A stretch of DNA of 64,000 nucleotides from an uncultured candidate division Zixibacteria bacterium (GTDB lineage: Bacteria; Zixibacteria; MSB-5A5; UBA10806). Of this stretch, positions 1 through 56,510 are shown one piece after another. Below the pieces are notes generated by a model. That model worked only from the letters and a program-made list of their open reading frames with translations. It was not told the origin of the DNA and did no database searches. How positions within the stretch are numbered: position 1 is the first letter of the stretch; the number at the start of each line of letters is the position of its first letter. The position numbers were made by a program, and so were the translations under genes. The DNA lies in NCBI GenBank assembly GCA_963801605.1, contig CAWDFP010000006.1, forward strand, positions 96,001 to 160,000, read 5' to 3'.

Positions 1-1
1 A

Positions 2-241
2 AAAGACCAGTTCCGAATGAAAGCGCGTTCGACCATCACAGGGAAATTCGTTATCATCTATAAACAAGCGGCATTCATCAATTTCAAGAGCTTGCACCGC
101 ATCGAAATTAATCCCTCGCGCTACCAGATTGATTGGGCCCGAGCCGACATCCTCCGTCACGACGGCGATCAACTCGCCATTACACTCAAAGTTTGCGGCT
201 TTCGAGAACCTCGAATGAACCCGGTATCGCCCGGGAACTAA
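2..241 (+). CDS. Hypothetical protein, 3' part (frame open from the window edge)
   Basis: Frame is open from nt 2 to TAA at 239-241 and converges on the DUF35 gene; no motif recognised. Confidence 0.4.
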   Translation, partial: KDQFRMKARSTITGKFVIIYKQAAFINFKSLHRIEINPSRYQIDWARADILRHDGDQLAITLKVCGFREPRMNPVSPGN

Positions 242-267
242 TTTATCTCCGATGCTCAGGACTTCAA

Positions 268-615
268 TCATGCCTTAAAGAATACCATCCCCATATATTC
301 GTTGTACTCATCCCGACGGACAACCTGCACTTTGCCGCGGACTTTCATCCCCATTTGAGGATTTTCGATATCGAGCTGCCCGGTAATACGGTTGCCATCG
401 GAAAGTTCGACGATCCCTAAACCGAGTGTTACAGTTTCAAAATCCGGAGGCAAAGTATAGAGAGTGGTATAAGTAAGAAGCTTCCCCTCTTTAGGAAGCG
501 GCACGATGTCGAATTCGTTGTGGTCGTTCTTATGACAGTTGCAGCAGATAGTTCGATACGGATATTGCACATGGCCGCACTTTTTGCATTTGTAAGCGTA
601 TATGTTCATTTCCAT
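268..615 (-). CDS. DUF35 protein (Zn-ribbon plus OB-fold), thiolase partner
   Basis: CKKC...CCNC Zn ribbon, then EGKLLTYT...GIVEL...GMKV OB-fold; directly downstream of a thiolase-like gene. Confidence 0.9.
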   Translation of the reverse strand: MEMNIYAYKCKKCGHVQYPYRTICCNCHKNDHNEFDIVPLPKEGKLLTYTTLYTLPPDFETVTLGLGIVELSDGNRITGQLDIENPQMGMKVRGKVQVVRRDEYNEYMGMVFFKA

Positions 616-618
616 AAA

Positions 619-1794
619 CTAATTCTCCCTGACAAATGTGAGACAAACCACATTGTTGCCGAAACCGCCGAAATTGCAGGTAAATCCTACTCTGGCATTT
701 TTAACCTGACGCTTGTCGGCCTCACCGCGAAGCTGCTGTACAATTTCATGCGCCTGCCCCACTCCGGTCGCTCCGACCGGATGACCCTTGGCTTTGAGGC
801 CGCCGGAAGTGTTAATCGGAAGCTTACCGCCAAGTTTAGTTACTCCTTTTTCCAGCGCGATATGGCCTTGACCTTTGGGGAAAAATCCTACCTCTTCGCT
901 TTCGGCGATTTCGAGGATCGTAAAGGCATCATGCAACTCGGCAACATTGACATCCTGAGGCGTTAGTTTCGCCATGGCGAATGATTGCCGGGCGGCTTCC
1001 CGGACCGCTAATAGCTCAGTTGGATCTTTACGATCATGCACAGAATGCGTATCGGTGGCCTGGCCTACTCCTGCCAAACGAACCAAAGGTTTGCCAGTCT
1101 TTTTGGCAACATCGGCGCTTGTTAAGATCAGGCAGGCGGCGCCATCAGACACCGGGCAACAATCGAAAAATCTGAGCGGATCGGCAACATAAGGATTGTT
1201 GGTGGAAGCCTCTGGCGAGTCGAGTATGCCCTCGATAGTAATCGGTTCGTGCAAATGCGCAAACGGATTTAGCATGGCGTTGGTATGATTTTTAACGGCC
1301 ACCATCGCCAGATGCCTGGATGTAACTCCATATTTATTCATATACAGCCGAGCGAACATTCCTGCGAGCGATGGCAGCGTTACGCCATAAATATATTCCG
1401 CTAATGGATGAGTGAGCGTAGCCACAAATTCAGTAGCCTCAAGATTGTTTACCTCGCGCATCTTTTCGGCACCAACCACCATGACGACATCATGCATACC
1501 GGAGGCGACCGCCAGGAATCCCTGCTTGATCGCCGAGGCTCCGGATGCCGGTCCGTTTTCGATTCCATCGGCGCCGGCAGGTGTCAGGCTAAGATTATCG
1601 ATTACGGCGCTGGCCAGCCCGGTTTGATGGTTGAGTCTGGCTGCGCCCATGTTGGCCACATAGAGATGATCGATTTTATCCAAGCCCGAATCTCGAAGAG
1701 CCATTAGAGCCGGATAAGCGGCGATTTCAATTAAAGGATATTCCAGGCGAGTGAAGCTTGTTATGCCAATCCCAGCTACATAAACCTCTCGCAT
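619..1794 (-). CDS. Thiolase-like protein (archaeal/SCP-x type) lacking the N-terminal catalytic Cys
   Basis: MREVYVAGIG start with GGAGG RBS; DCCPVSDGA, ELHDAFT and [14 protein letters not shown] motifs; ENGPASG where ExACASG is expected. Confidence 0.88.
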   Translation of the reverse strand: MREVYVAGIGITSFTRLEYPLIEIAAYPALMALRDSGLDKIDHLYVANMGAARLNHQTGLASAVIDNLSLTPAGADGIENGPASGASAIKQGFLAVASGMHDVVMVVGAEKMREVNNLEATEFVATLTHPLAEYIYGVTLPSLAGMFARLYMNKYGVTSRHLAMVAVKNHTNAMLNPFAHLHEPITIEGILDSPEASTNNPYVADPLRFFDCCPVSDGAACLILTSADVAKKTGKPLVRLAGVGQATDTHSVHDRKDPTELLAVREAARQSFAMAKLTPQDVNVAELHDAFTILEIAESEEVGFFPKGQGHIALEKGVTKLGGKLPINTSGGLKAKGHPVGATGVGQAHEIVQQLRGEADKRQVKNARVGFTCNFGGFGNNVVCLTFVREN

Positions 1795-1795
1795 T

Positions 1796-2542
1796 TTAAT
1801 TCCCTCCCAACCTGCGGCGCTGTTCAATCAGAGCGGTGGCAGTAGAATCGTATAGCGAACGGGTAGCAGCCAAAAGATCGATGGGGGGCGTGGGCGGATC
1901 GCTTGGAGGCATTATCGCCTCTTTAGCTTTGATCAGAAGATGTCCCGGTACGGGACGGCGTCCCACCACCAGGCTAGTGCGGGCTTTTTCGAAAATCTCC
2001 TTTGTAAGAGACCAGGACGGCACGCCGCCAAGTTCGTGGGGGATATCAAATCGTTTTTCCAGCTTATATTCAATCATCCAGCGACGGAACCCGATTGGTG
2101 ATTCGGCCACAATCAGCACTTCCTTTTGCCCCAGGATATCCAGATGATACTCCATCTTGGCGGCGAAGGCATGCGCCCCAATCCGGAGCCCTCGTCTGAG
2201 AGCCAGCGTATGATACGACATGCCAATATCGGCGCTCACTCTTCTGCCGTTAACGATGGCGGCCAGTTCACCGTCGATCTGGGCGGCAAGGACGTACTCA
2301 TCCTGAACCCGGTAGGTATAGTAACCCAGCAGTTCGGCGTAAACCCGAGCGGCAACAATATGGTAATAATCGCGCTCGACATGCATCAGCTTTTCGACAT
2401 GCGGCAGGATATCGGGAATCTCATCGCGGCTTACCTGCCTGATAATCATCTCCTCGCCGCCCGCAAGAGTCATAAGTTTGGGCGGAAACTCGGGCATCGG
2501 CGTATCCACAGGGCGAAGAATCTTCTCCAGGTCAACGGCCAT
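1796..2542 (-). CDS. Putative GNAT-fold acyltransferase
   Basis: AGGAGG RBS; IIRQVSRDEIPDIL first strand/helix, YVLAAQIDGELAAIV hairpin, RRGLRIG motif-A-like loop; first gene of the thiolase-DUF35 operon. Confidence 0.6.
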   Translation of the reverse strand: MAVDLEKILRPVDTPMPEFPPKLMTLAGGEEMIIRQVSRDEIPDILPHVEKLMHVERDYYHIVAARVYAELLGYYTYRVQDEYVLAAQIDGELAAIVNGRRVSADIGMSYHTLALRRGLRIGAHAFAAKMEYHLDILGQKEVLIVAESPIGFRRWMIEYKLEKRFDIPHELGGVPSWSLTKEIFEKARTSLVVGRRPVPGHLLIKAKEAIMPPSDPPTPPIDLLAATRSLYDSTATALIEQRRRLGGN

Positions 2543-2722: not shown

Positions 2723-3190
2723 CTAAAGCTCTTCCAGGACCGTAAGGACATAGTCAGTTTGCGGGGGCTTTTGTCCCTGCTCCCGGATAAGGCGATTGAT
2801 TTGCGCCCGATGGCCAATGGAGTGGTAGTTTATCTGAAGAATTATATCGCGGAGTTTGATCCTCATGCTTTTGCTATCGGATGGCCTCTTAAATACGATA
2901 TAATTTTCAAGGATGGCCTCATCGCTTTCATTCAAAAACCTGAGCCACTTGGTGACGCTTGAGTCCCATCGAGTTTCAAGCTCTTCCATGGGGATTGTTG
3001 GGCCCGTCCAGGAGTGAGCACCATCGTCAGCCTCTTTGGTAACCCGATTTAGCCATCTGTCTTGCGCTGCTATTAGATGGCCAAGAAGTCTCACTACCTC
3101 GTCTTTTTCAGGCAGCGTCACAATCGATTTAAGCAATTGGCGAAAGGCCCAATCGTTGTAGCGGAAAAAATCTAGAAAATATTGTTTCAT
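2723..3190 (-). CDS. DinB family protein
   Basis: YNDWA N-terminus, HLIAAQDRW, and NYHSIGHRAQI His motif with C-terminal PPQTDY. Confidence 0.88.
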   Translation of the reverse strand: MKQYFLDFFRYNDWAFRQLLKSIVTLPEKDEVVRLLGHLIAAQDRWLNRVTKEADDGAHSWTGPTIPMEELETRWDSSVTKWLRFLNESDEAILENYIVFKRPSDSKSMRIKLRDIILQINYHSIGHRAQINRLIREQGQKPPQTDYVLTVLEEL

Positions 3191-3342: not shown

Positions 3343-5337
3343 CTACTTCAATAAAAGCATTTTTATGGAGGAGGCGTTATCGCCTGAAAGCCTGGCGAAA
3401 TAGATGCCGGCAGAAACGGGAATGCCTTTTAAGTCGGTGCCGTCCCAAACGGGATTATTACCGTTGGCATGAAGCTTTTTAACAAGTCTGCCGGTAGTAT
3501 CATAAATAAGAATGATACTGTTTTGATGCAGTTGGCCATCGAGTTGAATTATGGTTGAGCTATTAAATGGGTTGGGGTAGTTGGCTTTTATCGATAGAAC
3601 CTGAGGTAAAACGGGAGAATCAACCGCTCCGGTAGTTTGATCACCTAAGACGACAATGATATGTCTGTGCGCAGACCAGCCATCGGCGGCAAGTTCGATA
3701 TTAAATATTACGGTATCGCCGGAATTCAGTTCATTCGAAAAATGAACGGTCCATCCCATAACGGCGGAGGTATCGTCATGAGCCAGAGGACCGAAGGCGA
3801 TATCGCCGGAGAGAATCTGAACATTGGGATTTGTAGATGTCAGGTGGGCTGAGGCGTTTGCCGCGGCTGCACCGAGATTATTAATCACGATATTAAAATC
3901 AAGTGTAGCACCGGGAAATATAATGGGATCGGAAGAGTTCTCGGAAACTATCGTTATAAACGGATTGTCGGGAGTCGGCATATAATCGATTGCTCTTAAA
4001 ATATTGATCAGACCCCAGCCGTAATTATTATCCTCGCCGGGCGTTCCCAGATCGAGAGCAGAATTCATCAGCGCTTGCTTGATCTCTGATGGAGTGGCCT
4101 CTGGATTGTATTGCCTCAGTATGGCAACAGCTCCAGCGACATGAGGGGCGGCCATCGAGGTACCCGACATAACAGCATAGCCGCCGGTTCGGCTGGTGGA
4201 ACGGATCCCGACTCCGGGTGCAGTAACCTCGGGCTTGATGCTGACATTATCGCAGGCCGATGGGCCGCGGCTGGAGAAATCAGCGACCTGAAAATCGGGA
4301 GTGCCGGCATTAATAGCGCCAACCGAAAAGGAATTAAAATTGGTCGTAACGCGATCTGCCGGGATACGGATTGTGCTGGGGTTGGAACCCTCATTTCCAG
4401 CGGCGAAAATGCAAACCACTCCGGCGGCTTCGAGATTATCTATGGCCTCCCAGAAAGTGGCCTCACAGGCGGGATAATATCCCAACGGAATTCCCCAGGA
4501 GTTGTTGACAACGTCGGGGACATCATCAGTAGTAGCGGGGTCACCATCGGGATCGGCCGCCCACTGGAATGCGGCCAGGATGTCGGAGATAGTCCTTTGA
4601 ATGCCGGCTCCCCTATCAACCACTGCGGCTGCGATCCACTGCGCGCCAGGAGCGACGCCGACCGTGTCATTTCCCTCGGAGCCGACCATGGTCCCCATAG
4701 TGTGAGTGCCATGGCCGTTGTTATCGAAAGGAGTCTGGGTGTTCGTATAAGAGTCGAACCAACAGGCATCAGGCGTACCGCCGTTGTTGCCTCGGTATTT
4801 AGATGCTAACGCTCCATGAGCGCCATATACGCCAGTATCGAAATTGCAAACCAGGCTACCGGAACCATCAAGACCGATTCTCCAGGCATCAGGAGCTTTG
4901 ATCGCAAAGAGACTGCTGTCGGGACCGTTGCTCAGGATGGTTGTTTCATGCTGCTCAACTGGAGCAATCAATTCGATGGGGTAATCTTCGGATATTGATT
5001 GGACATCGGGACGGGCAGCCAGTGCCTCGAGAGCGGCGGAATCGCCGGTGACCTTAACGATATTGGCAATCCAAAAACGCTCGTAGCTTACAATTTTTCC
5101 GGATTCGACTGCATTGAGAGCGCCGACGAAATCGCTTTGAGATACGGTTGAAGTCGTTCTCAGATTTTCAACTATGGACTTATGACCAAGCTTTTTATTT
5201 CCCGCAAAATTGGCAGCGATTGATGGAGGGGTGTCATTTATAATTTGGAAAAGAATGGTCCTTTCGGAAGCCAGACACAGACTGGGGAAGATCGATAAGA
5301 TTGATATAATTGAAAGCAGATTTCGGTATTTTCTCAA
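3343..5337 (-). CDS. Secreted S8 subtilisin-like peptidase (bacillopeptidase F-like) with propeptide and C-terminal sorting/FlgD-like domain
   Basis: Signal peptide; catalytic motifs DTG, HGTHTMGT, AAGN, GTSMAAPH; NYPNPFN...WDG...GIYF...KMLLLK tail; TTG start with AGGAGG RBS. Confidence 0.93.
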   Translation of the reverse strand: MRKYRNLLSIISILSIFPSLCLASERTILFQIINDTPPSIAANFAGNKKLGHKSIVENLRTTSTVSQSDFVGALNAVESGKIVSYERFWIANIVKVTGDSAALEALAARPDVQSISEDYPIELIAPVEQHETTILSNGPDSSLFAIKAPDAWRIGLDGSGSLVCNFDTGVYGAHGALASKYRGNNGGTPDACWFDSYTNTQTPFDNNGHGTHTMGTMVGSEGNDTVGVAPGAQWIAAAVVDRGAGIQRTISDILAAFQWAADPDGDPATTDDVPDVVNNSWGIPLGYYPACEATFWEAIDNLEAAGVVCIFAAGNEGSNPSTIRIPADRVTTNFNSFSVGAINAGTPDFQVADFSSRGPSACDNVSIKPEVTAPGVGIRSTSRTGGYAVMSGTSMAAPHVAGAVAILRQYNPEATPSEIKQALMNSALDLGTPGEDNNYGWGLINILRAIDYMPTPDNPFITIVSENSSDPIIFPGATLDFNIVINNLGAAAANASAHLTSTNPNVQILSGDIAFGPLAHDDTSAVMGWTVHFSNELNSGDTVIFNIELAADGWSAHRHIIVVLGDQTTGAVDSPVLPQVLSIKANYPNPFNSSTIIQLDGQLHQNSIILIYDTTGRLVKKLHANGNNPVWDGTDLKGIPVSAGIYFARLSGDNASSIKMLLLK

Positions 5338-5535
5338 AGTCCCTCCTTGTTGGCTAAGAATAGGTCAAATGCCATGCCACGAGATGCATATAGTTGGGAC
5401 TGACGATGCCTACATAACTTATTCAATATTAATATGTTAAGGCGCGGTTTCAGGCTTTATCAAAAACAACCAGATACCATATTAAGCGTTATGTGCAGGA
5501 TAATGCAGATATACTGTAAATGAGGGGCTTGAATT

Positions 5536-5571
5536 AAAAAAAGCCTCCAGGCCGTTGAAAGCCTGGAGGCT
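5536..5571 (-). terminator. Rho-independent terminator
   Basis: GCCTCCAGGC/GCCTGGAGGC 10-bp stem plus T7 on the minus strand, after the 5596 stop. Confidence 0.85.
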
Positions 5572-5595
5572 AAGGATTTTGAGTAATCCTAAATC

Positions 5596-7449
5596 TTACT
5601 TAAGCAGAAGCATCTTCTTGGTTTCGACCGAATTGCCGACGCTTAAGCGATAGAAATAGACACCTGAGGCCTTGTCGGAGGCGTTCCAGGTGATGACGTT
5701 GCTACCGGCAGGATAGTTACCGGAGATCTTTTCGACCAACTGCCCGGTGATTGAGTAGATGCTGATGTTAACATCGGATGGTTTTGTCAGCGAGAAGCGG
5801 ATATTAGTTTGGGCGTTGAACGGATTAGGATAATTCTGTGAAAGGCTGAAGGCTTTTGGTGTAGCGCCTTCGTCAACCGACTGAACACCCTGAATAGCAT
5901 TGAGCCTAAACATGATGTTGGAAACTGAGCGGTTACGATCGGGAGCCATACCGCCAGTATATTCCCAGCCTCTATTGGATAGCGGAACTGTGTTATCCAT
6001 ACCAAACGCAACTGTATTTTGGAGGGCATGGAGAGCCACAAAATAGAATCTCTCGTCGGCCTGGAAGTTGAGATGCGCATAGGTGAAATCGACGTTGACC
6101 CAACCCGTATCGGATACCTGGACGGTATCACCAGCCAGTGGGGTAGCCAGATTCGGGTGACCGGTACCATCATCGCCGAATATCCAGGCCCAAACAGCTC
6201 CGGGAGCGGTTACGCTATAAACAAAGAATCGTCCGGTAGTAATGCCGACCGCTTCTGGAAGCTGGAATTCCTGACCAAACCCGGAGGAATCGCCTGTCCA
6301 GCTACGGCCATCATCAACTAATCCATCATCATATTTCAATTCCTGAGGGAATCTGTAGGAAACGATCTGAGATGTAATGCTGTTGTTGCCGGGAACAGCG
6401 TCGCGAAGCATAGTGCTGGACCAGGTTGCTTTGAAAATGGTGCGATTTGAATCGCAGGTGAATGAACCCGGGAAATCAATCCACTGCTGGAGGCCGGGAT
6501 CCAAAAATTCGATGGTATCGGCCTGATTGTAAAGCGATGTCGAACCGCGTCTGATCTGAGCACGTCCAACGATATTGGTATCCGGTCGATTTCCAAAATT
6601 CTTGAAGAGAGCACGGGGAGTGATCGAGCTGGAAGTTGGAATAAAGATTGCCTGGGAACCTTCGTTAAATGCCTGAACAACGCCGGCATCCTTAACCGCA
6701 TAGTTGGGGTTCGGGATGGGATGGAAGCGGATAGCGAGGCCATCATGCCACATATGGTTAGCTGGCAGGTTGCGGCGCAGGTACTGCAGGCCTACTGTTC
6801 CAGTTACATTCTCAATTCCGATGACAGTCATGGTGCTGTCTGAGGAATCAAGGAAACGGCCATGATTTGCCCCGTACTGATATGTGATGGATGAGTCGGC
6901 CGCATTGAGGATTAACTGGAAGGTATGAGTTGAATCGATGAAGCCATATTCACCGACGTTAATCCAGGAGACGACAAACGAATCGGCATGAGAATAATAG
7001 TAGCAGGATGCGTTACCGCGGGAAAAATCAAGGTCGCCGGTAAGGCAGGACATGTAATTGTTCGGCGGAGCAGCAGCCGGGATATCAGCAAAAGGATGGG
7101 CAAAGTTGTAATTATTGTCAAATTCGATATAGCCGTTGGAGCCGACCCAGCAACGGTTAACTGTATACCAATAGTAAGGGAAGTTGAAACCGATCGGTAT
7201 CGGGCCGATGTTGTTATCGTCCGTTAATCCGAGGACACGAGTTCCAATGGTTGAGATATCAACCCAGTTGTAAGGAACGGGACCACCGTTATCGTTGTCA
7301 ACCCAGTTATAACCGTAAGCATCACGGGTGGTGCTGCTATCGAACGGAATCGGGGGCTCAAAGTTCGCAGGATTGAAACCGTTATTGGCAGCAAAGGCCA
7401 ACTGGGCACTCAACAACAACAAAACCAACATCAATAGTAATCTTTTCAT
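5596..7449 (-). CDS. Secreted protein with C-terminal Por-secretion/FlgD-like domain
   Basis: Signal peptide; DAYGYNWVD...IGFNFPYY N-terminal beta domain; [10 protein letters not shown]...SGVYFYRL...KKMLLLK tail. Confidence 0.85.
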   Translation of the reverse strand: MKRLLLMLVLLLLSAQLAFAANNGFNPANFEPPIPFDSSTTRDAYGYNWVDNDNGGPVPYNWVDISTIGTRVLGLTDDNNIGPIPIGFNFPYYWYTVNRCWVGSNGYIEFDNNYNFAHPFADIPAAAPPNNYMSCLTGDLDFSRGNASCYYYSHADSFVVSWINVGEYGFIDSTHTFQLILNAADSSITYQYGANHGRFLDSSDSTMTVIGIENVTGTVGLQYLRRNLPANHMWHDGLAIRFHPIPNPNYAVKDAGVVQAFNEGSQAIFIPTSSSITPRALFKNFGNRPDTNIVGRAQIRRGSTSLYNQADTIEFLDPGLQQWIDFPGSFTCDSNRTIFKATWSSTMLRDAVPGNNSITSQIVSYRFPQELKYDDGLVDDGRSWTGDSSGFGQEFQLPEAVGITTGRFFVYSVTAPGAVWAWIFGDDGTGHPNLATPLAGDTVQVSDTGWVNVDFTYAHLNFQADERFYFVALHALQNTVAFGMDNTVPLSNRGWEYTGGMAPDRNRSVSNIMFRLNAIQGVQSVDEGATPKAFSLSQNYPNPFNAQTNIRFSLTKPSDVNISIYSITGQLVEKISGNYPAGSNVITWNASDKASGVYFYRLSVGNSVETKKMLLLK

Positions 7450-7555
7450 TCATTCCTCCTTAAAGTTTATCGAAAATCTACGATCAGATTAATTCTACTA
7501 AAATTTCACCTCCTTGGCAATGAATCATTTCTTTTCTTTAATAGTGAATTTGAAT

Positions 7556-10500
7556 TTATTTTAATAAAATCATCCTCTTAGTTGAAACGGCTCCGGATGT
7601 TTCCAGCCTATAGAAGTACAGCCCCGATGTTACAGTTTTGCCCAGATCATCAACGCCATTCCAGGTAATTTGATGTATCCCGGCGCCAAGGATTCCGTTT
7701 GCTCAATAACTTGATTCGCCGTCCCAATAGATCGTAAACAGCGAGATTAACATCCTGATCGGAAGGAAGTGAAAAAGAGATAACTGTACTGGCGTTGAAT
7801 GGATTGGGATAGTTCTGGGAAAGCTCGAAGGTGTTCGGTAGATCACCCTTATCGTTAATTCCCGTATCGAAGTGACCATAATAACCGGTGCGAGCCAAAT
7901 CTTTTCCGAAAACCGGCCAGGGGAAAATCTGGTTGGGCAGATCGGTCCTGTAATCTATGACGTCGAGATTATTGCCCGAGGTCTTAACGCCGACGACGAT
8001 TTCGCAATGGTTATCACCATCAAAATCGCTTAGCGCGGCGGCAGCAGAAATCGGTCCGCCAATACTGGCAGCCATCGGAAAGTTGCGTAACATCTGTCCG
8101 TGATGATTGACCGCATAAATGACGCCATCATAAGCACCAAAGACGATATCGGGGAAACCGTCACCGTCAACGTCACCCTCAACAGGTGAGGCGGTGATCA
8201 TAGCTCCAGCCTGAACAGGGAAACCTTCCTGCGGTTGGCCGTTGGCGCGAAAAACGTAAAGACGGGAATCGTTACATCCGACGGCTATTTCGAGATGCCC
8301 GTCATTGTCGATATCGCATAGAGACGGCGATGATGCCAGGGCTCCTCCCGCCATTGCCGGCCATCCGGGCATGGTCGCGCCATTGTAGTCGAGGGCGTAG
8401 AGGCTTCCGGCAGTCGTGCCAACGATCACATTGAGATGGCCATCACCATCGATATCAGCCACACACGGGGTGGTTTTAATTTGCCCGCCAATCCTTCTGG
8501 GAAATCCTGCGACCTCGCTCTTGTCAGCGTTCAAGGCGTGAACTGTTGAATCCATATCGCCGTAGATAACTTCGGGCAGGCCGTCAGCATCGAGATCTGC
8601 CAAAGCCACTGAACCCATAATATTGCCAGTACCCTGGAATGGCCAGGTTTCAAGATCGGCGCCGGTATTGGTTATGACGTAAATCCGCCTGGTGGCAAAC
8701 ATGCCAACCACGATCTCCAGCAGCGAATCGCCATTGATATCTCCAAGGACAGGAGTCGAAAAGGTGAGGGTACCGCAATTGCGCGGGAAATTTGGCAGGG
8801 TGTTACCATCGGGGCCCCAGGCATAAATATTGCCGTCACGGGACATCCCAACGATATCGAGATTGCCGTTATGGCCTAAATCGCCTGCGGCCGCGCCGCC
8901 GGGCGTTTCGCTGGTAACCGCCCTGGGCCATCCAGGTGTGATTGAACCGTTGGCTTCGAAGGAATAATAGTTGGCATTGCTGGCACTTATCAAAATTTCC
9001 CTGGCGCCATCAGCGTCGGTATCAACAATAAGCGGAGGGGAATCAATATTGCCGGGAGTATTAGCGGGGAATCCAGCTTGTTCCAAGGTTACGTCAACAT
9101 TCAAAGTAATAGTGGTATGATAACTGGTGTTGGACGTAAGATAGAGCGTAAAAGTATGGCTGCCCATACTGACATCGGAATTAACTCTGACGTCAAAAGG
9201 ATTGGATGTATTATTACCGGTGCCTGTCGGGCCGGAGATATTGCCAAAATCGGCAATTGAATCGAGGACGGTAAATTGGCCGTCAGAACGAAGCGTACCG
9301 ACTACGTTCGTAGCATTTGACCATATATTGGCCAGATCAACTACCAGCGAAAATCTTTCATTGGGATTGAGCCTGCCATCGCCGTCATCCTCGGTCAAAG
9401 TCAAAGTGCTATCGATCATTTTAAGACGGGGATAAATGTATCGTCCCACGGCGGCGGCGGCATTAACTCTGCCAGCGCCCATCATACCGCGTCGAGTTGG
9501 GTTGAGGTAATCGATTGTATCGGCAGTGGCGGTTAATCTGGTACGAACCTGATCTACCGTAAATGTTGGATTAGCGGCCCGAATAAGGCAGACGACGCCT
9601 GCGGTTATAGGAGATGCCATGGAAGTGCCGTCAAGCGCAGTATAGCTATTATGATCCCAGGTGGAATTGACGCCCTCGCCGGGCGCCGAAACGGTGATCC
9701 AGTTTCCATAGTTGGAAAATGATGCCAATTGGTCGGTGGAGCCAACGGCGGCTACCGCTATAACGTGGGCATAACCGGCCGGGTAAAATCTCGTCGATAC
9801 TCCGTCATTACCGGCGGCTCCGACTATTACCACTCCGGCATTATAAGCAGCCGTAATAATATTCTGTTCATATTGAGAAAAGTAGCTGCTTCCCCAGCTT
9901 AAATTTATGACCGTGGCGCCGTTGTCGGCAGCGTAGGTGATGCCGACAAATCCGTTATAAATATGTTCGGGGTCGTTATCCCTGGCGACTTTAACCGCCA
10001 TAAGCCTCGCGCCCCAGGCAACAGCAGCTCCCCCCTGGCCATTATCGCAAGCCATACTGGCGCATCCGGCCACATGGGTCCCGTGAGTGGGAACCGGCTC
10101 GAATGGAATAGGATCGTTTTGAGCGATATCATATCCGACAACGTCATCAATATAATCGTTACCGTCATCGTCAATGCCATTAATGTCGGTTCTGTGTAAA
10201 TCGTCCGTCGCCGTCGATATCCTCACCGCGATTGATCCACATATTGGGCTCAAGGTCAGGGTGATCGTAATATACACCGGAATCCACGATACCCAGGACC
10301 GGACGGCTGGTGGAATCGCCTCGAATAAAATCCCAAGCCAGGTAAGCCTCAGTGGTTCTCAATTGATACCAGGAGCCGATGAGCGGATCGTTAGGAACAT
10401 AAGTCAAATGCTGCATGCGATAAGGCTCTGAGGTTTCGATATGGGAATCGCCGGCAAAAGCGGTAATTGCCGAACTCAGATTACCGCCGTTACCCACGGT

Positions 10501-10797
10501 GACTACATAAAGACGCTTGACGACGTCGCGCAGGATTTCGTTTTTTATCCGAGCAGGGTAAAATTCTTCGACGGCCGTAATATTTTCTCTCGAAATAATC
10601 TGATCTATAGTGGCATAGCCGGTGGTGGTGTTAATTTGCCTGGCATTGTCAAATGGAGTCAATACGACGCCCTTTTGAACAGAGATAACAAATTGATCGA
10701 CTCGGTAATCGACTCCGGGGACTCCCTCCAATGCCGAAGCACAGGGGGCGAGGATCGCCAGCGTCAACAGAGAAATAAATAGGGAATACAACTTCAT
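7556..10797 (-). CDS. Secreted S8 peptidase with FG-GAP repeats and sorting tail (frameshifts near 10190 and 7700)
   Basis: ORFs 10180-10821 and 7650-10277 join; DSG, HGTHVAG, GTSMASP; many DxDxDGxxEI repeats; a shifted frame restores ITWNG...GLYFYRL...RMILLK ending at 7556; paralog of the next gene. Confidence 0.88.
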
Positions 10798-11031
10798 ACC
10801 GTTTCTCCCTGATAATTCCAATTAATTAAAAACTAAAGACATATAATCTTAGCGCGATCTTTGGTGTAACAAGATCTGGGTCCACATCTCATTTCCCGGC
10901 ATTGATTGCCCGCACACCTAAGATTAAGAAAGTATGAGGTTAATTGTCAAGCAAAATACGACTTTTTACCCCTCTTAAAAAAAGCCAAAAAGACTATGAT
11001 GGGCCAGCTAAAAGACTTTCGTTTTTCGCAC

Positions 11032-11065
11032 AAAAAAAACCGCCCGAGAATTGGGACTCGGGCGG
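11032..11065 (-). terminator. Rho-independent terminator
   Basis: CCGCCCGAG/CTCGGGCGG stem plus T8 on the minus strand. Confidence 0.85.
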
Positions 11066-11094
11066 GAATAAATCTGTTAACCAAGTGTATAATC

Positions 11095-14000
11095 CTACTT
11101 AAGCATAACCATACGCTTAATAAGAGTACCCTCACCACTATCCAGACGGTAGAAGTAAACGCCCGATGTGACCGTAGCGCCTGATTCATCGGTGCCGTTC
11201 CACGTAAAGGTATGCTCACCAGCGGATATCCGTCCAGACTGAAGGAGCTTGACTCTCCGGCCAAGGATATCGAATATCGTTAAGTTGGCTTCGCCATCAT
11301 TCTGCAGCGCAAAGCTGATGTTAGTGGAGGCATTGAACGGGTTCGGGTAGTTTTGCTGAAGATCGAAGGCAACGGGCATGGCAGGTTGTTCGGAAACACC
11401 CACTAATGCGGTCTGGGCGTTATTAGTGCGATACCAATCACGTCCGAAATTCGGCCATTTGAGGTCTCCCACTAAAGCTTGTACTCTATAATCGTAGACT
11501 ACGAGGTTGGCGCCGGTAGCCTTGATTGGCACTACAATCTCCATACGGCCGTCGTGATCGAGATCGCCTAAAGCGACGGTGCCGGCAATTTGACGTGAGC
11601 TTGAGCCGAGAATCGGGAAATTACCAAGCGTCGCGCCAGTTCTATCGACACCATAGAGATTACCGCCAGTGGTGCCCACGACGATATCGGGTAAGCGATC
11701 CCCGGTAATATCGCCGACTACGGGGGTCCCAAAGACGCTATTTCCGACTGCGACTGGGAATCCGGTTAGATCGGTTCCATCGATTTTGAGGGCCCGCAAA
11801 TTGCCGTCGGAAGTGCCGAAAATAATCTCAAGATTGTTATCATTATTGAGATCGACCAATGCTGGGGTCGAACGCAACGAAGTGGAATAGCTCACGGGGA
11901 AACCGGTCATTATCTGACCGAGGTGATCTATGAGATAAACTTTACCCGGCGAATAAGTCGCTACAACGATTTCCAGGTGAGTATCGTTGTTAAGATCACC
12001 CACGGACGGTGCACACCAAACCTGCCCGGCCAGACGCACCGGGAAGCCTGCTACTTCGCTGCCATCAGCATTCCAAACATGAAGAGTGGAATCAAAACCT
12101 GCATAAATTATTTCGGGAAGTCCGTCTTCATCGATATCACCGGCGGAGGCGGAACCATACCATTTATTTATCGCAGCAGAAGGCCAACCAGCCAAGTCGC
12201 TGCCATCGGATTTAACGACATAAACCTTATTATCCGAGAATGAACCGGCGATAATTTCCAGATTCTGATCGCCATTAATGTCGGCTAAAAGCGCTCCGGA
12301 ATAGAATGTGCCGTTTTTACTCACGGGGAAATTGGTAACGGCGGCTCCGTTGGCATGCCAGGCGTAAAATTTACCATCTTTGCTGACTTCGACAATTTCG
12401 TTTGAGCCATCATGATCGATATCGCCAATGGCCGGACCGGTGATAGGATCTCCGGTAACGGCTTGAGGCCAGCCGGCGCTATTTGTGCCATTTGGCTCGA
12501 TGGCATAGACGTTACGGTCGTTAGCCGAGAACACGAGTTCGTTGTCTCCATCACGATCAAAATCGAAGATGATCGGGCTTGATTCGATATTTCCGGGAAT
12601 ATCCATCGGAAAACCGATCTGATCCATAGAGACGGTAACGGTAATGGTATCATCCTTGGAATAAGTTGAATCGGCGGCGATGTGTATCATTATGGGCTGG
12701 ATGCCGGGAACTAAATCCCGGTGCGCGGTGAGAAGAAGGGGATCGCCGGTATTAGTAGACTGCTGATTATGCAGAATATTGCCAAACGAAGCTGTGGAAT
12801 CGGTGATATCGAATCCGGCGCTCCTGATGGTAACGTTAACGTTATTAGCATCGGCCCACATATTGCCAAGAGTAAGAGTCAGATTGAAAGATTCACCGGG
12901 ATTGATCTTGCCATCGCCATCATCATTGGTGATAGTCGCCCAGCTTGAATCGACTGTAATGTTCGGGAAGGAGGACGAACCAAGGGCGGTGAATGCGTTT
13001 ATGCGGCCGCTGCCAAGCTGTCCAACATAGGATGGATTGAGGGCGTCGATATTATCGGTGGTGTTGACAATGCAATCGACGATATCCTGATTGGTCCAGC
13101 CGGGATGAGCAGCTCTGAGCAGAGCGGCGAGGCCGGCGGTTATGGGGGAAGCCATCGAGGTGCCATCGAGGCTCATCATGGCATTCGAGCTCCAGGTTGA
13201 ATAAACGCCCACGCCCGGCGCGCTGACATCAACCCAGGTTCCATAACTGGAGAAATCCGGTTTATGATCGGTGCTATTTAGAGCCGCCACGGAAAGCACA
13301 TTATTGTATGCGCCGGGATAGATACGCGTACTATTATAGTTGTTGCCGGCGGCAGCGACTATAACCACGCCAGAACCCCAAATGGTGTTGACGATATTTT
13401 GATAGCCCTGGTTGAAGGTCGTTGATCCCCAGGAACAATTAATGATATTGGTATAATTATCGGCGGCGTAGGTCATGCCCTGGTAAACTGTCGTAAGGGT
13501 GTCATGCCTGGCGCCTTTGACTGCCATGATACGGGCCTTGAAACCAATTCCAGCGCCGTTAAGGTTGTTATCGGTTGCTTCGGATGCGCATCCGGAAACG
13601 TGAGTGCCATGAATCGGGGCATCTTCCCTGGGATCACGATCATTGAATCCAAGGTCCCAACCAATGACATCGTCTATATAACCGTTGCCATCGTCATCAA
13701 CGCCGTTGATATCGCCGGTATCCATAGTACCGTTAGCATTGATATCCTCCGCCTCGTTAACCCACATATTGGGAGCTAAATCGGGATGGGCCCAATACAC
13801 ACCGGTATCGACTATACTGACAATGGCAGTGCGGGTGGTATCGCCGCGAAATAGATCCCAGGCCTCATAAGCATGGATTCTGGTGAGGTGCCATTGACTG
13901 GTACGCTGAGGATCGTTGGGAAAATAGAAAAGCTGAGGAATGTCGTAGCTATCGGAGCATTCGACATCGGGGCTGGTTCTGAAGGCGTCACGGGCAGCCA

Positions 14001-14331
14001 GCACATCGGTGCCAGGCGCTACATGGAAGATATACATCCTTGTAACCAGGTCCCGTAGTGCCTCGTTTCTAACAGGCGCCGGATACCAGGGTTCAATTTG
14101 GGTAACGTTTTGCAGATAGCAAAGATTATCTATCGAAGGGATTCCTGAAAGCGCCCGGCCCGAGGAAGCTTTGCCAATCTCCAATGGCGCCACTCCAGTA
14201 TAGGTCGTGACGATAAAGCAATCAGCAAGGTACTGACTGCCGTCAGGCCTGGAGGCGATTTGCAAATCGGCCGCCATGAGAGATGCCGGAATCAAGCATA
14301 ATACCGCCAAAACTATTAATTTTTTCATCAA
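11095..14331 (-). CDS. Secreted S8 peptidase with FG-GAP repeats and sorting tail
   Basis: Signal peptide; DTG, HGTHVSG, AAGN, GTSMASP; FG-GAP-like DxDxDG repeats; QNYPNPFN tail. Confidence 0.93.
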   Translation of the reverse strand: MMKKLIVLAVLCLIPASLMAADLQIASRPDGSQYLADCFIVTTYTGVAPLEIGKASSGRALSGIPSIDNLCYLQNVTQIEPWYPAPVRNEALRDLVTRMYIFHVAPGTDVLAARDAFRTSPDVECSDSYDIPQLFYFPNDPQRTSQWHLTRIHAYEAWDLFRGDTTRTAIVSIVDTGVYWAHPDLAPNMWVNEAEDINANGTMDTGDINGVDDDGNGYIDDVIGWDLGFNDRDPREDAPIHGTHVSGCASEATDNNLNGAGIGFKARIMAVKGARHDTLTTVYQGMTYAADNYTNIINCSWGSTTFNQGYQNIVNTIWGSGVVIVAAAGNNYNSTRIYPGAYNNVLSVAALNSTDHKPDFSSYGTWVDVSAPGVGVYSTWSSNAMMSLDGTSMASPITAGLAALLRAAHPGWTNQDIVDCIVNTTDNIDALNPSYVGQLGSGRINAFTALGSSSFPNITVDSSWATITNDDGDGKINPGESFNLTLTLGNMWADANNVNVTIRSAGFDITDSTASFGNILHNQQSTNTGDPLLLTAHRDLVPGIQPIMIHIAADSTYSKDDTITVTVSMDQIGFPMDIPGNIESSPIIFDFDRDGDNELVFSANDRNVYAIEPNGTNSAGWPQAVTGDPITGPAIGDIDHDGSNEIVEVSKDGKFYAWHANGAAVTNFPVSKNGTFYSGALLADINGDQNLEIIAGSFSDNKVYVVKSDGSDLAGWPSAAINKWYGSASAGDIDEDGLPEIIYAGFDSTLHVWNADGSEVAGFPVRLAGQVWCAPSVGDLNNDTHLEIVVATYSPGKVYLIDHLGQIMTGFPVSYSTSLRSTPALVDLNNDNNLEIIFGTSDGNLRALKIDGTDLTGFPVAVGNSVFGTPVVGDITGDRLPDIVVGTTGGNLYGVDRTGATLGNFPILGSSSRQIAGTVALGDLDHDGRMEIVVPIKATGANLVVYDYRVQALVGDLKWPNFGRDWYRTNNAQTALVGVSEQPAMPVAFDLQQNYPNPFNASTNISFALQNDGEANLTIFDILGRRVKLLQSGRISAGEHTFTWNGTDESGATVTSGVYFYRLDSGEGTLIKRMVMLK

Positions 14332-22763: not shown

Positions 22764-23171
22764 TTAAAGATAACTCTCCTGCCGAGCCCACATCCTGGCG
22801 CGATTCTCCGGGGTATCATCCCGGTATCCCAACAGGTGCAGGACTCCATGGATAGTCAATCTTTTCACCTCCTCAAGATATGTAACATGATTGTCCCGGG
22901 CTTGTCGCCGGGCCATCTGCAAATTAACGTAAATTTCGCCCAAATGAATCTTCTGGCCGGGATCATCGAGATTAAATGCCAGCACATCGGTGCTACGTGA
23001 CTTGCCTTTGAAACGCAAATTGAGCGGTATGATTTCGCTATCGCGGCAATAGATAATATCGAACGACCATTGCGACGCCTTCTCGCGTAAGAGAATTTTC
23101 TTAACAAGCGCCGTCATGCTTTTTTTATCGAGCGCAAAACGTTTATCAGTTAAAATTATAGTTACCCTCAA
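22764..23171 (-). CDS. ybeY: rRNA maturation endonuclease YbeY
   Basis: TDVLAF, LGEIY, HGVLHLLGY Zn motif. Confidence 0.93.
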   Translation of the reverse strand: MRVTIILTDKRFALDKKSMTALVKKILLREKASQWSFDIIYCRDSEIIPLNLRFKGKSRSTDVLAFNLDDPGQKIHLGEIYVNLQMARRQARDNHVTYLEEVKRLTIHGVLHLLGYRDDTPENRARMWARQESYL

Positions 23172-25405
23172 GCTCCGACCTCGTGCGGCTCGGATTCAGG
23201 ATAAACAATCCGTCGATGGAATATGCCGGTCAGTACCCGTGCGAAACTCTCTTCGATAAGATGCAATTCGCGAAGGGTAATGTCGCAATCATCGAGCTCG
23301 CCGGATTCGAACTTGGTGGATATTATCCGATGTGCCAGATTTTTAATGCGCGCCGGCTTGGGGTCATCGAGGGTACGCGAAGCGGCCTCCACGGAATCAG
23401 CCAGCATGACGATTGCCACTTCCCTGCTTCTGGGCCTGGGGCCGGGATAACGATACTCGTTTATATCGACATCGTCTCCCTCGAGGGTTTTGGCTTTTTC
23501 ATAGAAATATGACATGACCGTGGTACCATGATGGCCGGTGATGAAATCGATGATGGAATCGGGCAGACCGTTTTTCTCGGCTAGTTCTCTGCCTTCCTTG
23601 ACGTGCGCTTCAAGAATGAGGGCCGACATCGATGGCGCCAGCCGCTCATGTTTATTTCGGGCGCCAACCTGGTTCTCCACAAAATATTCGGGTTTGAGCA
23701 TTTTACCAATATCATGATAATACGAACCAACTCTGGCCAGCAGCGAGTTAGCGCCGATAGCCTTGGCAGCGTCCTCGGCTAAAGTGCCGATCATAATCGA
23801 GTGATGGTATGTGCCGGGAGCCTCGATCGCGAGACGCTTGAGAAGCGGACGATTGAGATCGGAAAGCTCCAGCAGGGTGATATCGGTGGTAAGCTTGAAA
23901 GTCGTTTCAAAGAGCGGCAGCAAACCGATAGTAAGAATTGGCGAGATAAAACCGTTGATAGCCGCCAACCCGGTATGACGCCAGAGATCCGCATAGGGCG
24001 GTGAGCTTGAGCGATTCGATAATATAAACTAATCCGAAATAGACTAACGGCCAGATAAAAGATCGAGCGATAAAATTCGTGGCGATGGCGCACCTTGCGC
24101 ACTGAAAAAGCGGCCACCACTCCGGCTACGATCCCCACAAAGGCGATATCGATCTTAAAGCCGGAAAGGATTCCGATAAGCATCGCGGCGGTAAAGTTCA
24201 GGAAGATACCGGTCTCGAGATCGAATGCGATTGTAGACAGCATGGCGGCGATAGTAATAGGAACCAGATAGGGCGAGAGATAAGCCTGGAAACTGACGAT
24301 ATCGAGAATCATCACCAAGCCCTGCCAGAAGTATGGCAAAAAGTATTAAAGCTGAATTGGATGCAAATATATTCCGTCGGAAATGATGAAGATAGAACGC
24401 AAAAAAGAGTATCGGAAATGCCACGAAAAAGAGCCGTCCCAAAGGAGGCAGCAGAAATTGAACTACGTCACTCTGGATAAGCTTGGTTCTTTTGTATCGG
24501 GCGAGCGAAAGAAGTTTGTCGCGAATAAGCTTGGTAATTCTTTCGTTGGCCCGTACGATTTTTTGATCTTTATAAACCCAACCCTTTTCGGCTCGGATAC
24601 CTGTCAATTCCGAATTTTTACTGGATTCTGTCAGGCTTTTATCGAATACAAGATTGGGCTCCAGGAATTGCCAGCCGATTTCCCTGCCCGCCGGTCGCAA
24701 GGCGGGACGTCTTGAAAGGGCAGCGTCGGCCTGCACGGTGACATACCAGTGGGCCTTATCGAGATCGAAAATCTGTTCGCGCACTACGGTTTTGGTCTCT
24801 CCGCGTTTATCGACAATCACAATTCCGGATTCTTCAAGAGGCAGATTAACCAGGCTGGGATAAATGCCATCGAACATAAGCGTATCTAAAACCGGGATAG
24901 CAAACTCAGCCAGGGCATGAGCGGCTCGCGTATCATGAAGAGAGTTGATGGTGTTTTCAGACAGATTGGGATAGTTGGACCGCATTATCTGAAGGAAAGC
25001 CAGGGAATCGAGTTTCAGGGCATTAAGCGAATCGGCAGTTGAGAACAACCGTCGAATGCGTTCTCTGGCATTCTCCGCGATGGCAACATCATAAGAGAGC
25101 ACCGGCCGCAGATTAGCCAGGACGGATTCACGGTCTTTTTGCAATTCTTCATCGGATTTCAAGATCGGGAAATCAAAGGGAGCGATAATATCGCGCTCGG
25201 CGATCTCCCCTATCACGGGAATTTGAATCGGCTCGTATATTTTATCTATCGGATAAAGAAAGGTTATCCCAAAAATTAAAACAAAGCCCAATGCCACCCG
25301 GAACAAGATCTGATTGCTGCTTAAAGGCTCCTGGACACGATTGCCATTGCCGTTCTCAGTTCCTTTGGGAGCGGGGTTAATCTTTCTCTTAAAGGGATTT
25401 CTCAC
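23168..25405 (-). CDS. 7TM-HD phosphohydrolase (PgpH/YqfF-like; frameshifts near 24330 and 24040-23990)
   Basis: Three overlapping ORFs give the extracellular, 7TM and HD parts (APGTYHHS, YHDIGK, HHGT, YRYPGP, MLADSVEAA); conserved phoH-HD-ybeY context. Confidence 0.88.
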
Positions 25406-53797: not shown

Positions 53798-53867
53798 GGT
53801 GAACAATATTTGTATCTTGCGGTTTAATGAGTTGTAAGAATTGTCACCGAAAGAGAGGTATTTTATT

Positions 53868-54928: not shown

Positions 54929-54952
54929 ATGATATTTATCGGAGGAAAATAG

Positions 54953-56113: not shown

Positions 56114-56114
56114 G

Positions 56115-56510
56115 ATGTCATCACCAAGATACTGGCGGGCGATGCCCCAGAGATACCGTTTCGAGGCGGCCAAATGCAAAAAGTGCGGCAAGGTGCTGTT
56201 CCCTCCGAGACTGGTTTGCCCGAATTGCCATAATCGCGAATTCGTGAAAACCAATATTCACGATACCGGCAAGGTTGAGACTTTCACGGTTATTCGCGTG
56301 GCACCGAGCGGCTTTACGGATTTAACGCCGTACCCAATCGCAATCGTGAATGTCGGCGATGGCGTCAGAATCCTCTGCCAGATGGCCGACTGCGATTTAG
56401 AGGATCTCAAAATCGGAATGAGTGTGCGTCTGGAGTTCCGCAAAGTCTCCGCCGAGGGCGAAAGCGGGATTATCTACTACGGATATAAGGCTGTCCCGGA
56501 AGTAAAATAG
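56115..56510 (+). CDS. DUF35 scaffold protein (Zn-ribbon plus OB-fold)
   Basis: PRYWR...CKKCG...PPRLVCPNC...GKVETFT...IYYGYK. Confidence 0.92.
   Translation: MSSPRYWRAMPQRYRFEAAKCKKCGKVLFPPRLVCPNCHNREFVKTNIHDTGKVETFTVIRVAPSGFTDLTPYPIAIVNVGDGVRILCQMADCDLEDLKIGMSVRLEFRKVSAEGESGIIYYGYKAVPEVK

Follow-up and report, generated by a model that had tools for sequence, protein, structure and literature searches.

A GNAT-fold protein, a cysteine-less thiolase and a DUF35 protein as a possible ATP-free module from malonamate to acetyl-CoA in uncultured bacteria

The stretch of DNA analysed here (the window: 64 000 nucleotides from an uncultured bacterium of the candidate division Zixibacteria) carries near its start, all on the minus strand, three closely packed genes. 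A GNAT-fold protein of 248 residues, belonging to subfamily A of an unnamed family (1796-2542), is followed by a 391-residue thiolase-fold protein of the archaeal/SCP2 type (619-1794) and by a DUF35 protein of 115 residues (268-615), made of a zinc ribbon, in which C10, C13, C24 and C27 are invariant, and an OB fold. The intergenic gaps are 1 nt between GNAT and thiolase and 3 nt between thiolase and DUF35, the thiolase start being placed at the conserved ATG that gives 391 residues (the ORF caller runs on to a TTG at 1827). A previous sequence-only reading had seen here a three-gene operon. The tight linkage of the trio holds; its status as a stand-alone unit does not, since the start of allH (273 residues, PF11392; 5′ part at 1-271, minus strand) overlaps the DUF35 stop (ATGA at 268-271) and the operon goes on past the window edge with allF/fdrA, allG, a cyclase gene and a molybdo-hydroxylase arranged M-S-L (L001, 16271 down to about 7900, which is G000:C6:80001-99500). 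Promoter-like sites were about as frequent as expected by chance (5 vs 4.5).

At its active site, as first noted from the sequence, the thiolase reads ENGPASG, with a CCG codon (1549-1551, minus strand) for Pro82, in the column occupied by the nucleophilic Cys in 7YVY (IEAACASG) and 6ESQ (VEAACASG). Proline stands there in 79 of 79 aligned thiolases and is written with all four of its codons (CCG 50, CCC 18, CCT 8, CCA 3), which rules out a sequencing error. The HDAF (residues 288-291, with His288; 922-933, minus strand) and GHPV motifs (GHP at 337-339, with His338; 775-786, minus strand) are kept, as had been claimed, with His in all 78 and all 76 rows that have residues at these places. HDAF, moreover, has no counterpart to the acid/base Cys that SCP2-type thiolases carry in HDCF, a feature shared with 7YVY, so that both catalytic cysteines are missing from this protein, henceforth the Pro-thiolase. 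In the alignment its only invariant cysteine, C213, is paired with the Ser in HCSPVSDG of 6ESQ and the second Cys in CCPTSDG of SCP2, neither of them a catalytic Cys, while C373 varies among Pro-thiolases (63/72). The second thiolase of the window does carry ESACASG (55190-55210), together with HDCF, and is part of an HMGS-thiolase-DUF35 run at 53841-56510. The Pro-thiolase model superimposes on 6ET9 with a TM of 0.92, and Pro-thiolases are 71-95% identical across phyla, with both His and 164 columns near-invariant. A GNAT-thiolase fusion (P0391), seen in one sequence that is out of frame over long stretches, was taken as an artefact.

The sequence-only reading had gone on to propose a three-component acyl-CoA enzyme with chemistry other than Claisen, either aldol or acyl transfer. 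The two outcomes that would have spoken against it, Cys in close homologs and a GNAT linkage that is not conserved, did not occur. A conserved module of the three genes and its non-Claisen character are supported; the two named chemistries are not. In Ltp2 and Sal the Tyr of YDHF/YDCY is the base (PMC12329534); this YDxx tyrosine is absent here, HDAF being found in every one of the 78 rows with residues. PhlC and MucB work through an acylated Cys (PMC12960953), and Pro82 occupies its place.

The upstream gene had been called GNAT-like, and structure prediction bears this out: its AlphaFold2 model (pLDDT 81) has 8GXK as best structural match (Z 12.4, rmsd 2.9, 155 residues aligned), Foldseek gave 26 matches at E≤0.001, and the 50 matches listed are GNATs throughout. 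Sequence comparison was far less telling, with no match in Pfam, a chance match only in NCBIfam (E 0.035), nothing significant in profile searches against PDB sequences, and no homologs of the family in a plasmid search. In all, 2868 homologs of the GNAT were found, and 794 with a subfamily-B query, while a search of 1.84 billion sequences gave 203 matches, of which the 150 listed are apparent members or fragments of the family. S109, H111, G118, G122, E147, S148, G151, W155, H169 and E170 are invariant in 36 of 36 rows from both subfamilies; S109-x-H111 lies in the predicted beta-4 strand (2210-2218, minus strand), and the segment from E147-S148 to HELGG (169-173) at 2024-2104 (minus strand), where model residues 164-175 have a pLDDT under 50. 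After beta-4, where motif A, the CoA pyrophosphate loop (Q/R)xxGx(G/A), would be expected, R117-G-x-R120-x-G122 is conserved, with Arg where Gly is usual.

The linkage of these genes extends well beyond Zixibacteria. In each of 80 loci the gene after the GNAT is the thiolase, and in the 70 where the contig is long enough to tell, DUF35 always comes next; the statement that the trio lacks an HMG-CoA synthase proved right too, no HMGS cluster recurring among the neighbours. The trio is spread over about a dozen phyla of uncultured bacteria, all 80 locus titles being those of MAGs or SAGs, with no cultured member. Further pathway genes adjoin it in 63 loci, and AllG is encoded elsewhere in 15 genomes of the other 17. 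Among 301 genomes of the phylum Elusimicrobiota, members of the Pro-thiolase clade (scores above 700 bits) occur in exactly the six that have GNAT-A, adjacent to it each time, and in none of the ten that have GNAT-B; AllG is found in 15/16 of these GNAT genomes vs 48/301 overall, and in another count GNAT and AllG co-occurred in 37/40.

Prediction of the complex of the three proteins gave 0.56, against 0.00 for the best control, with runs agreeing in at least 83% of contacts and a partner pLDDT of at least 76. In calibration, 18 of 157 solved complexes, and both of the two mismatches that passed among 215, reached the mark with a score of 0.60 or under, counts that are only rough for a run of three chains with custom alignments. 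The proposed three-component complex is thus weakly supported by modelling.

Subfamily B throws light on the division of labour. No thiolase or DUF35 gene lies beside GNAT-B (0/80 loci), although the same pathway genes adjoin. Instead, a carboxyltransferase, Na+-pump decarboxylase or MdcA is found there in 15 of 80 loci, against none of the 80 trio loci: a fused AccD/AccA carboxyltransferase directly downstream in 12, MmdA with biotin carrier and Na+ pump in two, and MdcA in one (L142). On a quick tree (79/80 B rows, 13/81 A rows) these decarboxylase-type modules appear at four or more positions; the 12 carboxyltransferase loci are close kin, and the Mmd genes of L102 run in the opposite direction. 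We can therefore understand the GNAT, which also occurs in the pathway without a thiolase, as the core enzyme, and thiolase/DUF35 as an exchangeable part. It counts against the model preferred below that 65 of the 80 B loci (26 of the 36 of 8 kb or more) have no decarboxylase module. The beta subunit of the Na+ pump was over the cut-off in 0/16 Elusimicrobiota GNAT genomes, and hence does not explain GNAT-B there. The Zixibacteria genome, where MdcA was not found, contains an unlinked MmdA-like carboxyltransferase (59%), so that a dedicated decarboxylase is not strictly needed.

One might conclude that Pro-thiolase/DUF35 is a dead scaffold, or a CoA shuttle for GNAT-A, with catalysis left entirely to the GNAT, which might for instance split ureidomalonate directly with CoA into malonyl-CoA and urea. 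The absence of the thiolase beside GNAT-B fits this, and MucA/PhlA show that subunits of such complexes may lose catalytic residues (PMC12960953). We hold it improbable in view of the conservation of the thiolase, its two His included, the co-occurrence of GNAT with AllG, and the absence of a detectable urease in the Zixibacteria genome (87% complete).

As to the substrate, which the sequence-only reading had left unconstrained, the surrounding genes indicate the malonyl unit left over from uracil or thymine. In homologous operons a barbiturase takes the place of the cyclase and a uracil permease is added. The barbiturase is present in 12/80 A and 14/80 B loci and never together with the cyclase (0 of 160 loci); it matches barbiturase 5HWE with 537 bits and the best cyanuric acid hydrolase with 318. 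The Zixibacteria genome gave no match in a barbiturase search, the cyclase-family gene standing there. A uracil-permease-like NCS2 gene lies in 20/80 A and 10/80 B loci, uridine phosphorylase in 4/80 B loci, and cytosine deaminase in L157, L185 and L187. Homologs of allF, allG and allH occur together (PF00549/PF02629, PF06545, PF11392; the FdrA match to 3DMY has 282 bits), and carbamate kinase is above cut-off in the Zixibacteria genome. The barbiturase and permease neighbours suggest a route from uracil to barbiturate, ureidomalonate, and then malonamate plus carbamoyl phosphate, and it is likely that the trio operon degrades uracil (and thymine) via barbiturate. The molybdo-hydroxylase remained below all NCBIfam cut-offs, with best plasmid matches of 36% and no tie to a characterised uracil dehydrogenase, which counts against the model; the matching XDH on a R. 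erythropolis plasmid has no pyrimidine genes nearby.

It counts against the pyrimidine model that, in the Zixibacteria genome, the trio operon runs into purine-type genes: hydA, ygeW-like, ssnA-like and further XDHs. Purine and allantoin breakdown is the setting in which AllFGH and XDH-family genes are most familiar, AllFGH acting on oxalurate in E. coli (PMC11326118), and an aldolase or acyltransferase working on another acyl-CoA, as in a purine-linked aldol reaction of acetyl-CoA with glyoxylate, would suit such surroundings. The link of hydA and ygeW to the trio is seen in this genome only (0/80 other trio loci), which lowers the purine/allantoin reading; the neighbours that recur are those of pyrimidine metabolism just listed, along with malonyl-handling enzymes, and the thiolase has neither Tyr base nor Cys, so that we give this alternative little credence.

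A further clue comes from a YafV-like amidase, found in 14/20 sampled GNAT-less allFGH loci (13 of these lie at a single chromosomal site among the 20, and are hence kin) vs 1/14 loci from GNAT genomes, and absent from 45/50 trio genomes. Despite this locus-level pattern, it fails at genome level as a clean replacement of the GNAT: among Elusimicrobiota it is carried by 5/6 GNAT-A, 4/10 GNAT-B and 25/33 GNAT-less AllG genomes. We use it only to suggest that AllFGH yields an amide, an amidase being expected where the product is a dicarboxylic monoamide.

The pathway that we favour would run as follows. The molybdo-hydroxylase would oxidise uracil to barbiturate, and the cyclase, or in other lineages the barbiturase that is swapped for it, would open the ring to ureidomalonate. 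By analogy with the E. coli oxalurate reaction, here with a substrate one carbon longer, AllFGH and phosphate would yield malonamate and carbamoyl phosphate, from which carbamate kinase could make ATP. The GNAT, as a malonamate:CoA malonyltransferase, would then shift the malonyl group from the amide to CoA, and Pro-thiolase/DUF35, as a malonyl-CoA decarboxylase, would pull this uphill step, giving in net terms acetyl-CoA, CO2 and ammonia without ATP. Amide-to-thioester transfer should cost roughly +17 to +21 kJ/mol, and decarboxylation should return roughly -17 to -30 kJ/mol; a DUF35-scaffolded complex might couple the two, as the archaeal thiolase/HMGS/DUF35 complex does with its own two steps. 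To our knowledge no GNAT carries out amide-to-CoA transfer with ammonia as the leaving group, which speaks against the model, and we grant this assignment of the trio slightly less than an even chance.

In the Pro-thiolase, invariant H288 and H338 with loss of the Cys may be compared with ketosynthase-type malonyl decarboxylases. The enolate of the thioester would be stabilised by these two residues, presumably equivalent to the His pair in ketosynthases of the FabF type. In canonical thiolases the backbone NH of the nucleophilic Cys forms a second oxyanion hole, which Pro82 removes; with neither nucleophile nor NH, the carboxylate would be left unstabilised and Claisen chemistry blocked. His298/His335 of FabF are described as forming the thioester oxyanion hole (bioRxiv 10.64898/2026.05.19.726425), and the HDxF His as essential in PfACAT (PMC12960953). 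The thiolase-fold TbSLP slowly decarboxylates malonyl-CoA, at 0.005/s as cited in PMC12329534; against the model, the same source gives CtSal as having no malonyl-CoA decarboxylase activity. More broadly, and with greater reserve, we put forward the trio as a channelling enzyme able to form a CoA thioester directly from a primary amide with no ATP spent, the GNAT running backwards (malonamate + CoA to malonyl-CoA + NH3) under the pull of a Cys-to-Pro thiolase turned cofactor-free decarboxylase. It may thereby close an undescribed, oxygen-independent pyrimidine pathway giving carbamoyl phosphate and acetyl-CoA, with two possible ATP per uracil, in about a dozen uncultured phyla.

Reversed roles have also to be considered: the GNAT would then be the malonyl-CoA decarboxylase, and malonyl-CoA would come from Pro-thiolase/DUF35 by direct attack of CoA on the amide, where Pro82 removes the very backbone NH expected to stabilise attack at that carbonyl, or elsewhere from amidase with MdcA/FdrA. 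In MCD and CurA the GNAT fold serves decarboxylation by means of a Ser/Thr-His dyad (PMC3701320), and neither subfamily shows any change at S148 (after predicted beta-5), H111 or H169; yet the canonical Tyr position (His in MCD) holds, in a by-eye register, the invariant Trp155. H169 sits in a low-confidence loop. MCD and CurA do not figure among the 50 matches listed in either VIA search with the GNAT models, a listing too short to count against them, and a search of the Zixibacteria genome for the MCD family gave no match, in the controls no more than elsewhere. The amidase adjoins GNAT-B in L112, L119, L188 and L189, and L142, with amidase, MdcA and GNAT-B, holds the complete set that reversed roles call for; since MdcA activates free malonate, its presence there suits a GNAT that decarboxylates more than one that loads CoA. 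In the 12 loci with a carboxyltransferase directly after the GNAT, where no amidase or CoA transferase was found, this arrangement would leave two decarboxylases and no CoA-loading step, and we judge it on the whole unlikely.

The CoA thioester might instead be made earlier, AllF/FdrA, which has CoA-binding and CoA-ligase domains, producing malonamoyl-CoA. The Pro-thiolase, with both enolate-stabilising His kept, would split it by a retro-Claisen elimination that needs no nucleophile, releasing acetyl-CoA with cyanate or carbamate, much as Ltp2 does in its retro-aldol reaction, and the GNAT would be accessory. This we find very unlikely: E. coli AllFGH is described as releasing free oxamate (PMC11326118), the Tyr base is absent, and the replacement of the thiolase by carboxyltransferase-type modules would go unexplained.

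If the malonamate route is correct, it provides a function for two unannotated GNAT subfamilies, a new reaction type for thiolase/DUF35 complexes besides Claisen, retro-aldol and Friedel-Crafts reactions, and an extension of AllFGH beyond oxalurate. It would also represent an energy-conserving use of pyrimidine bases in anaerobic sediments and groundwater, and an ATP-free amide-to-acyl-CoA step of interest for biocatalysis. No comparable route from the C3 remnant of uracil to acetyl-CoA was found in the literature searched.

The oxidative pyrimidine pathway of Rhodococcus comprises uracil/thymine dehydrogenase, barbiturase (5HWE) and ureidomalonase. The homologous operons have a near ortholog of its barbiturase and a three-subunit molybdo-hydroxylase; they differ in that AllFGH stands in the place of ureidomalonase, a cyclase-family enzyme replaces barbiturase in the Zixibacteria genome, and the trio would take the C3 remnant. 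E. coli oxamic transcarbamylase AllFGH works with carbamate kinase (PMC11326118), and here allH, allF and allG homologs directly follow the trio, with carbamate kinase in the genome; the neighbours indicate ureidomalonate rather than oxalurate, and the accessible text of that paper describes no trio with the E. coli enzyme. With MCD and CurA (PMC3701320) the trio GNAT shares its fold and an invariant Ser after beta-5, and differs by the lack of a His at the matching position, by eye, and of any sequence match. The steroid aldolases Ltp2-ChsH2(DUF35) and Sal-Shy (6OK1, 9MYR) and TbSLP (5AB4-7) also use a thiolase fold without an acyl-Cys intermediate, the first two with a DUF35 partner; in them the motif is YDHF, YDCY or YDCF, with Tyr as base, where the Pro-thiolase has HDAF, identity is about 22-25%, and no steroid genes recur among the neighbours of the trio. 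The Friedel-Crafts acyltransferases PhlABC and MucABC (5M3K, 9VBO) are likewise three-gene thiolase/DUF35 units with new chemistry and, unlike the trio, keep and acylate the catalytic Cys and have a dead HMGS as third subunit (PMC12960953). A further comparison is with the archaeal thiolase/HMGS/DUF35 complex, which couples an unfavourable step to a favourable one (PMC12960953): its thiolase belongs to the same branch (35-40% identity, TM 0.87-0.92), with a DUF35 partner, here the four-Cys gene, and the same HDxF and GHP His. The trio departs from it in the change of Cys to Pro, in a GNAT rather than HMGS as third gene, and in its catabolic context, while a separate HMGS-thiolase-DUF35 run is kept in the genome.

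Three genes of the minus strand, read as coding for a GNAT-fold protein of 248 aa (1796-2542), a thiolase of 391 aa (619-1794) and a DUF35 protein of 115 aa (268-615), and separated by gaps of only 1 and 3 nt, form a real, strongly conserved module. The sequence-only reading had described the thiolase as Cys-less, and its codon 1549-1551, CCG, does align with the nucleophilic Cys of 7YVY and 6ESQ; proline occupies this position in all 79 thiolases aligned (the window's own and those of 78 of the 80 related loci, two being too short and left out), with all four Pro codons in use. HDAF and GHP are kept as had been claimed, His288 and His338 respectively being invariant wherever these residues are present in the alignment, and the sole invariant Cys, C213, matches a non-catalytic loop position. 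Another Cys-less member of the branch, the Sulfolobus thiolase-like ST0096 (PDB 4YZO), has Ser at the nucleophile position together with HDMA. The second thiolase of the window indeed has ESACASG, with HDCF, and is part of a run of archaeal-type HMG-CoA synthase, thiolase and DUF35 genes in this bacterium (53841-56510, plus strand), frameshifted in the assembly and followed by carboxyltransferase, enoyl-CoA hydratase-like and biotin carboxylase-like genes (57483-63456). A terminator-like hairpin within the DUF35 gene (480-499, minus strand) is probably due to chance.

The 248-aa protein matched no Pfam family, and it is its predicted structure (pLDDT 81) that structure comparison identifies as GNAT, in agreement with the original call. 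Its linkage is conserved as well: the thiolase gene directly follows it in 80 of 80 related loci, which span about a dozen phyla by record titles, and DUF35 comes next in all 70 that reach far enough. Upstream lie a DinB-family gene (2723-3190, minus strand), not linked to the trio in the other 80 loci, and a series of subtilase-type peptidases and related proteins that look secreted and share a C-terminal 'QNYPNPFN' domain (3343-14331, minus strand; labels by eye). Downstream, the stop codon of the DUF35 gene and the start codon of allH overlap, after which come, outside the window, allF/fdrA, allG, a cyclase-family hydrolase and a three-subunit molybdo-hydroxylase. Several of these genes are frameshifted in the assembly, probably through sequencing error, as the same genes are whole in relatives; split genes, probably long-read errors, are seen at 7883-12477 of L001 (the operon beyond the window) and at 7650-10821, 23168-25405, 53841-56113 and 61690-62947 of the window, the trio being intact. 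Further pathway genes accompany 63 of the 80 related trios, and AllG turned up in 37 of the 40 trio genomes examined for it, a subset picked mostly for short or trio-only loci. An AIR-synthase/HypE/ThiL-like gene lies near the trio in five loci (L004, L013, L015, L019 and L031, e.g. 3751-4809 of the last).

The trio probably belongs to an energy-conserving pyrimidine pathway, and we consider it likely that this pathway runs from uracil via barbiturate to malonamate. Taking the Rhodococcus pyrimidine pathway as comparison, the barbiturase homolog scores 537 bits against Rhodococcus barbiturase versus 318 or less against cyanuric acid hydrolases; a uracil-permease-like transporter, uridine phosphorylase and cytosine deaminase are recurrent neighbours. 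Across 160 loci barbiturase never occurs with the cyclase-family gene (kynurenine formamidase-like; L009 16099-16920, L001 11820-12477), a candidate second class of barbiturase. In E. coli, AllFGH turns oxalurate and phosphate into oxamate and carbamoyl phosphate (PMC11326118), and an analogous reaction would yield malonamate from ureidomalonate; the genome has a carbamate kinase, and no urease was found in it. Against this pathway, the hydroxylase was not matched to any characterised uracil dehydrogenase. A further point against it is that the operon adjoins purine-type genes here and could alternatively serve purine breakdown, though hydA and ygeW are absent from all the other 80 loci. Directly downstream (L001 1-7750, G000:C6:70200-81100) are hydA, a ygeW-like carbamoyltransferase gene, mocA and two more XDH sets, with preT/preA-, ssnA-, threonine synthase-, cysteine synthase- and xdhC-like genes labelled by eye, a stretch resembling a catabolic island for purines and for reductive pyrimidine breakdown.

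A second GNAT subfamily (GNAT-B), revealed via a relative's genome and about 35-40% identical to that of the trio (GNAT-A), has pathway genes in 58 of its 80 loci, and thiolase or DUF35 in none. We can therefore understand the GNAT protein as the core, and thiolase and DUF35 as an exchangeable part. Among 301 genomes of the Elusimicrobiota phylum, the Pro-thiolase clade is found in exactly the 6 with GNAT-A and in none of the 10 with GNAT-B. Operons devoid of GNAT (L206-L225, e.g. L212 11411-12169) often carry, between hydroxylase and allH, a YafV-like carbon-nitrogen hydrolase, a candidate malonamidase, whose presence in 14 of 20 such loci fits an amide as product. GNAT does not exclude it at the genome level (the hydrolase is in 5 of 6 GNAT-A, 4 of 10 GNAT-B and 25 of 33 GNAT-less genomes of that phylum); a search of 50 other trio genomes found none in 45, the best match in the window's genome is 25%, and AllG occurs in 34 of 39 genomes having the hydrolase. 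Two divergently transcribed GNAT-B paralogs stand side by side, adjoining pathway genes, in L095 (1-1429), L096 (7107-8726) and L105 (4674-6351). With copies in loci lacking pathway genes (L091, L092, L094, L107, L087), and AllG not found in genome G023, some GNAT-B copies may be orphans.

Beside GNAT-B we find a fused AccD/AccA carboxyltransferase directly downstream in 12 related loci, MmdA with a biotin carrier and a Na+-pump subunit in two (one with opposite strand) and MdcA in one; none of these occurs in a trio locus. Such decarboxylase-type modules occupy four or more positions in a quickly built tree, and none was seen within the other 65 GNAT-B loci. The fused protein, encoded within barbiturase operons (L141 8729-10345 and 11 related loci) where no biotin carrier was found, is a candidate biotin-independent malonyl-CoA decarboxylase. 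On the simplest reading, GNAT makes malonyl-CoA, with Pro-thiolase/DUF35 as a non-homologous stand-in for malonyl-CoA decarboxylase. Its main rival swaps the roles, making GNAT the decarboxylase: GNAT-fold MCD and CurA decarboxylate by a Ser/Thr-His dyad (PMC3701320), S148 of GNAT is invariant and the MdcA locus agrees with this rival. It would, however, leave the carboxyltransferase operons with two decarboxylases and no CoA-loading step.

Our best model, a tentative one, is that GNAT moves malonyl from malonamate to CoA, and Pro-thiolase/DUF35 decarboxylates malonyl-CoA. Replacement of Cys by Pro removes the nucleophile and also the backbone NH of the second oxyanion hole, which would suit loss of CO2; His288 and His338, which we take to be positional equivalents of two His of FabF, would stabilise the thioester enolate. 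PfACAT cannot do without its HDxF His (PMC12960953), two His form the FabF oxyanion hole (bioRxiv 10.64898/2026.05.19.726425), and malonyl-CoA decarboxylase activity is weak in TbSLP and absent in CtSal (PMC12329534). Moving malonyl from an amide onto CoA should be energetically unfavourable, so that its coupling to decarboxylation within a single complex would follow the same principle as the archaeal thiolase/HMGS/DUF35 complex (cited in PMC12960953). Multimer modelling of the three proteins weakly suggests the physical complex claimed earlier (score 0.56 vs 0.00 for the best control; contact agreement at least 83%, partner pLDDT at least 76); in a benchmark whose counts hold only roughly for a three-chain job, the passes at 0.60 or under were 18 of the 157 solved complexes and, among 215 mismatches, both of the two that passed.

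A literature search that took in few subscription journals found no paper dealing with this trio, with a place for malonamate in the breakdown of pyrimidines, or with barbiturase and FdrA together, and the trio is apparently undescribed to date. It lacks a defining feature of the thiolase/HMGS family and is not a member; the aldolase and acyltransferase chemistries proposed at the outset are likewise not supported, since it lacks a defining feature of the Ltp2/Sal and of the PhlABC/MucABC families and belongs to neither. By analogy, its way of working would resemble that of the archaeal channelling complex and of nucleophile-less ketosynthases, as a new variant of thiolase/DUF35 complexes.
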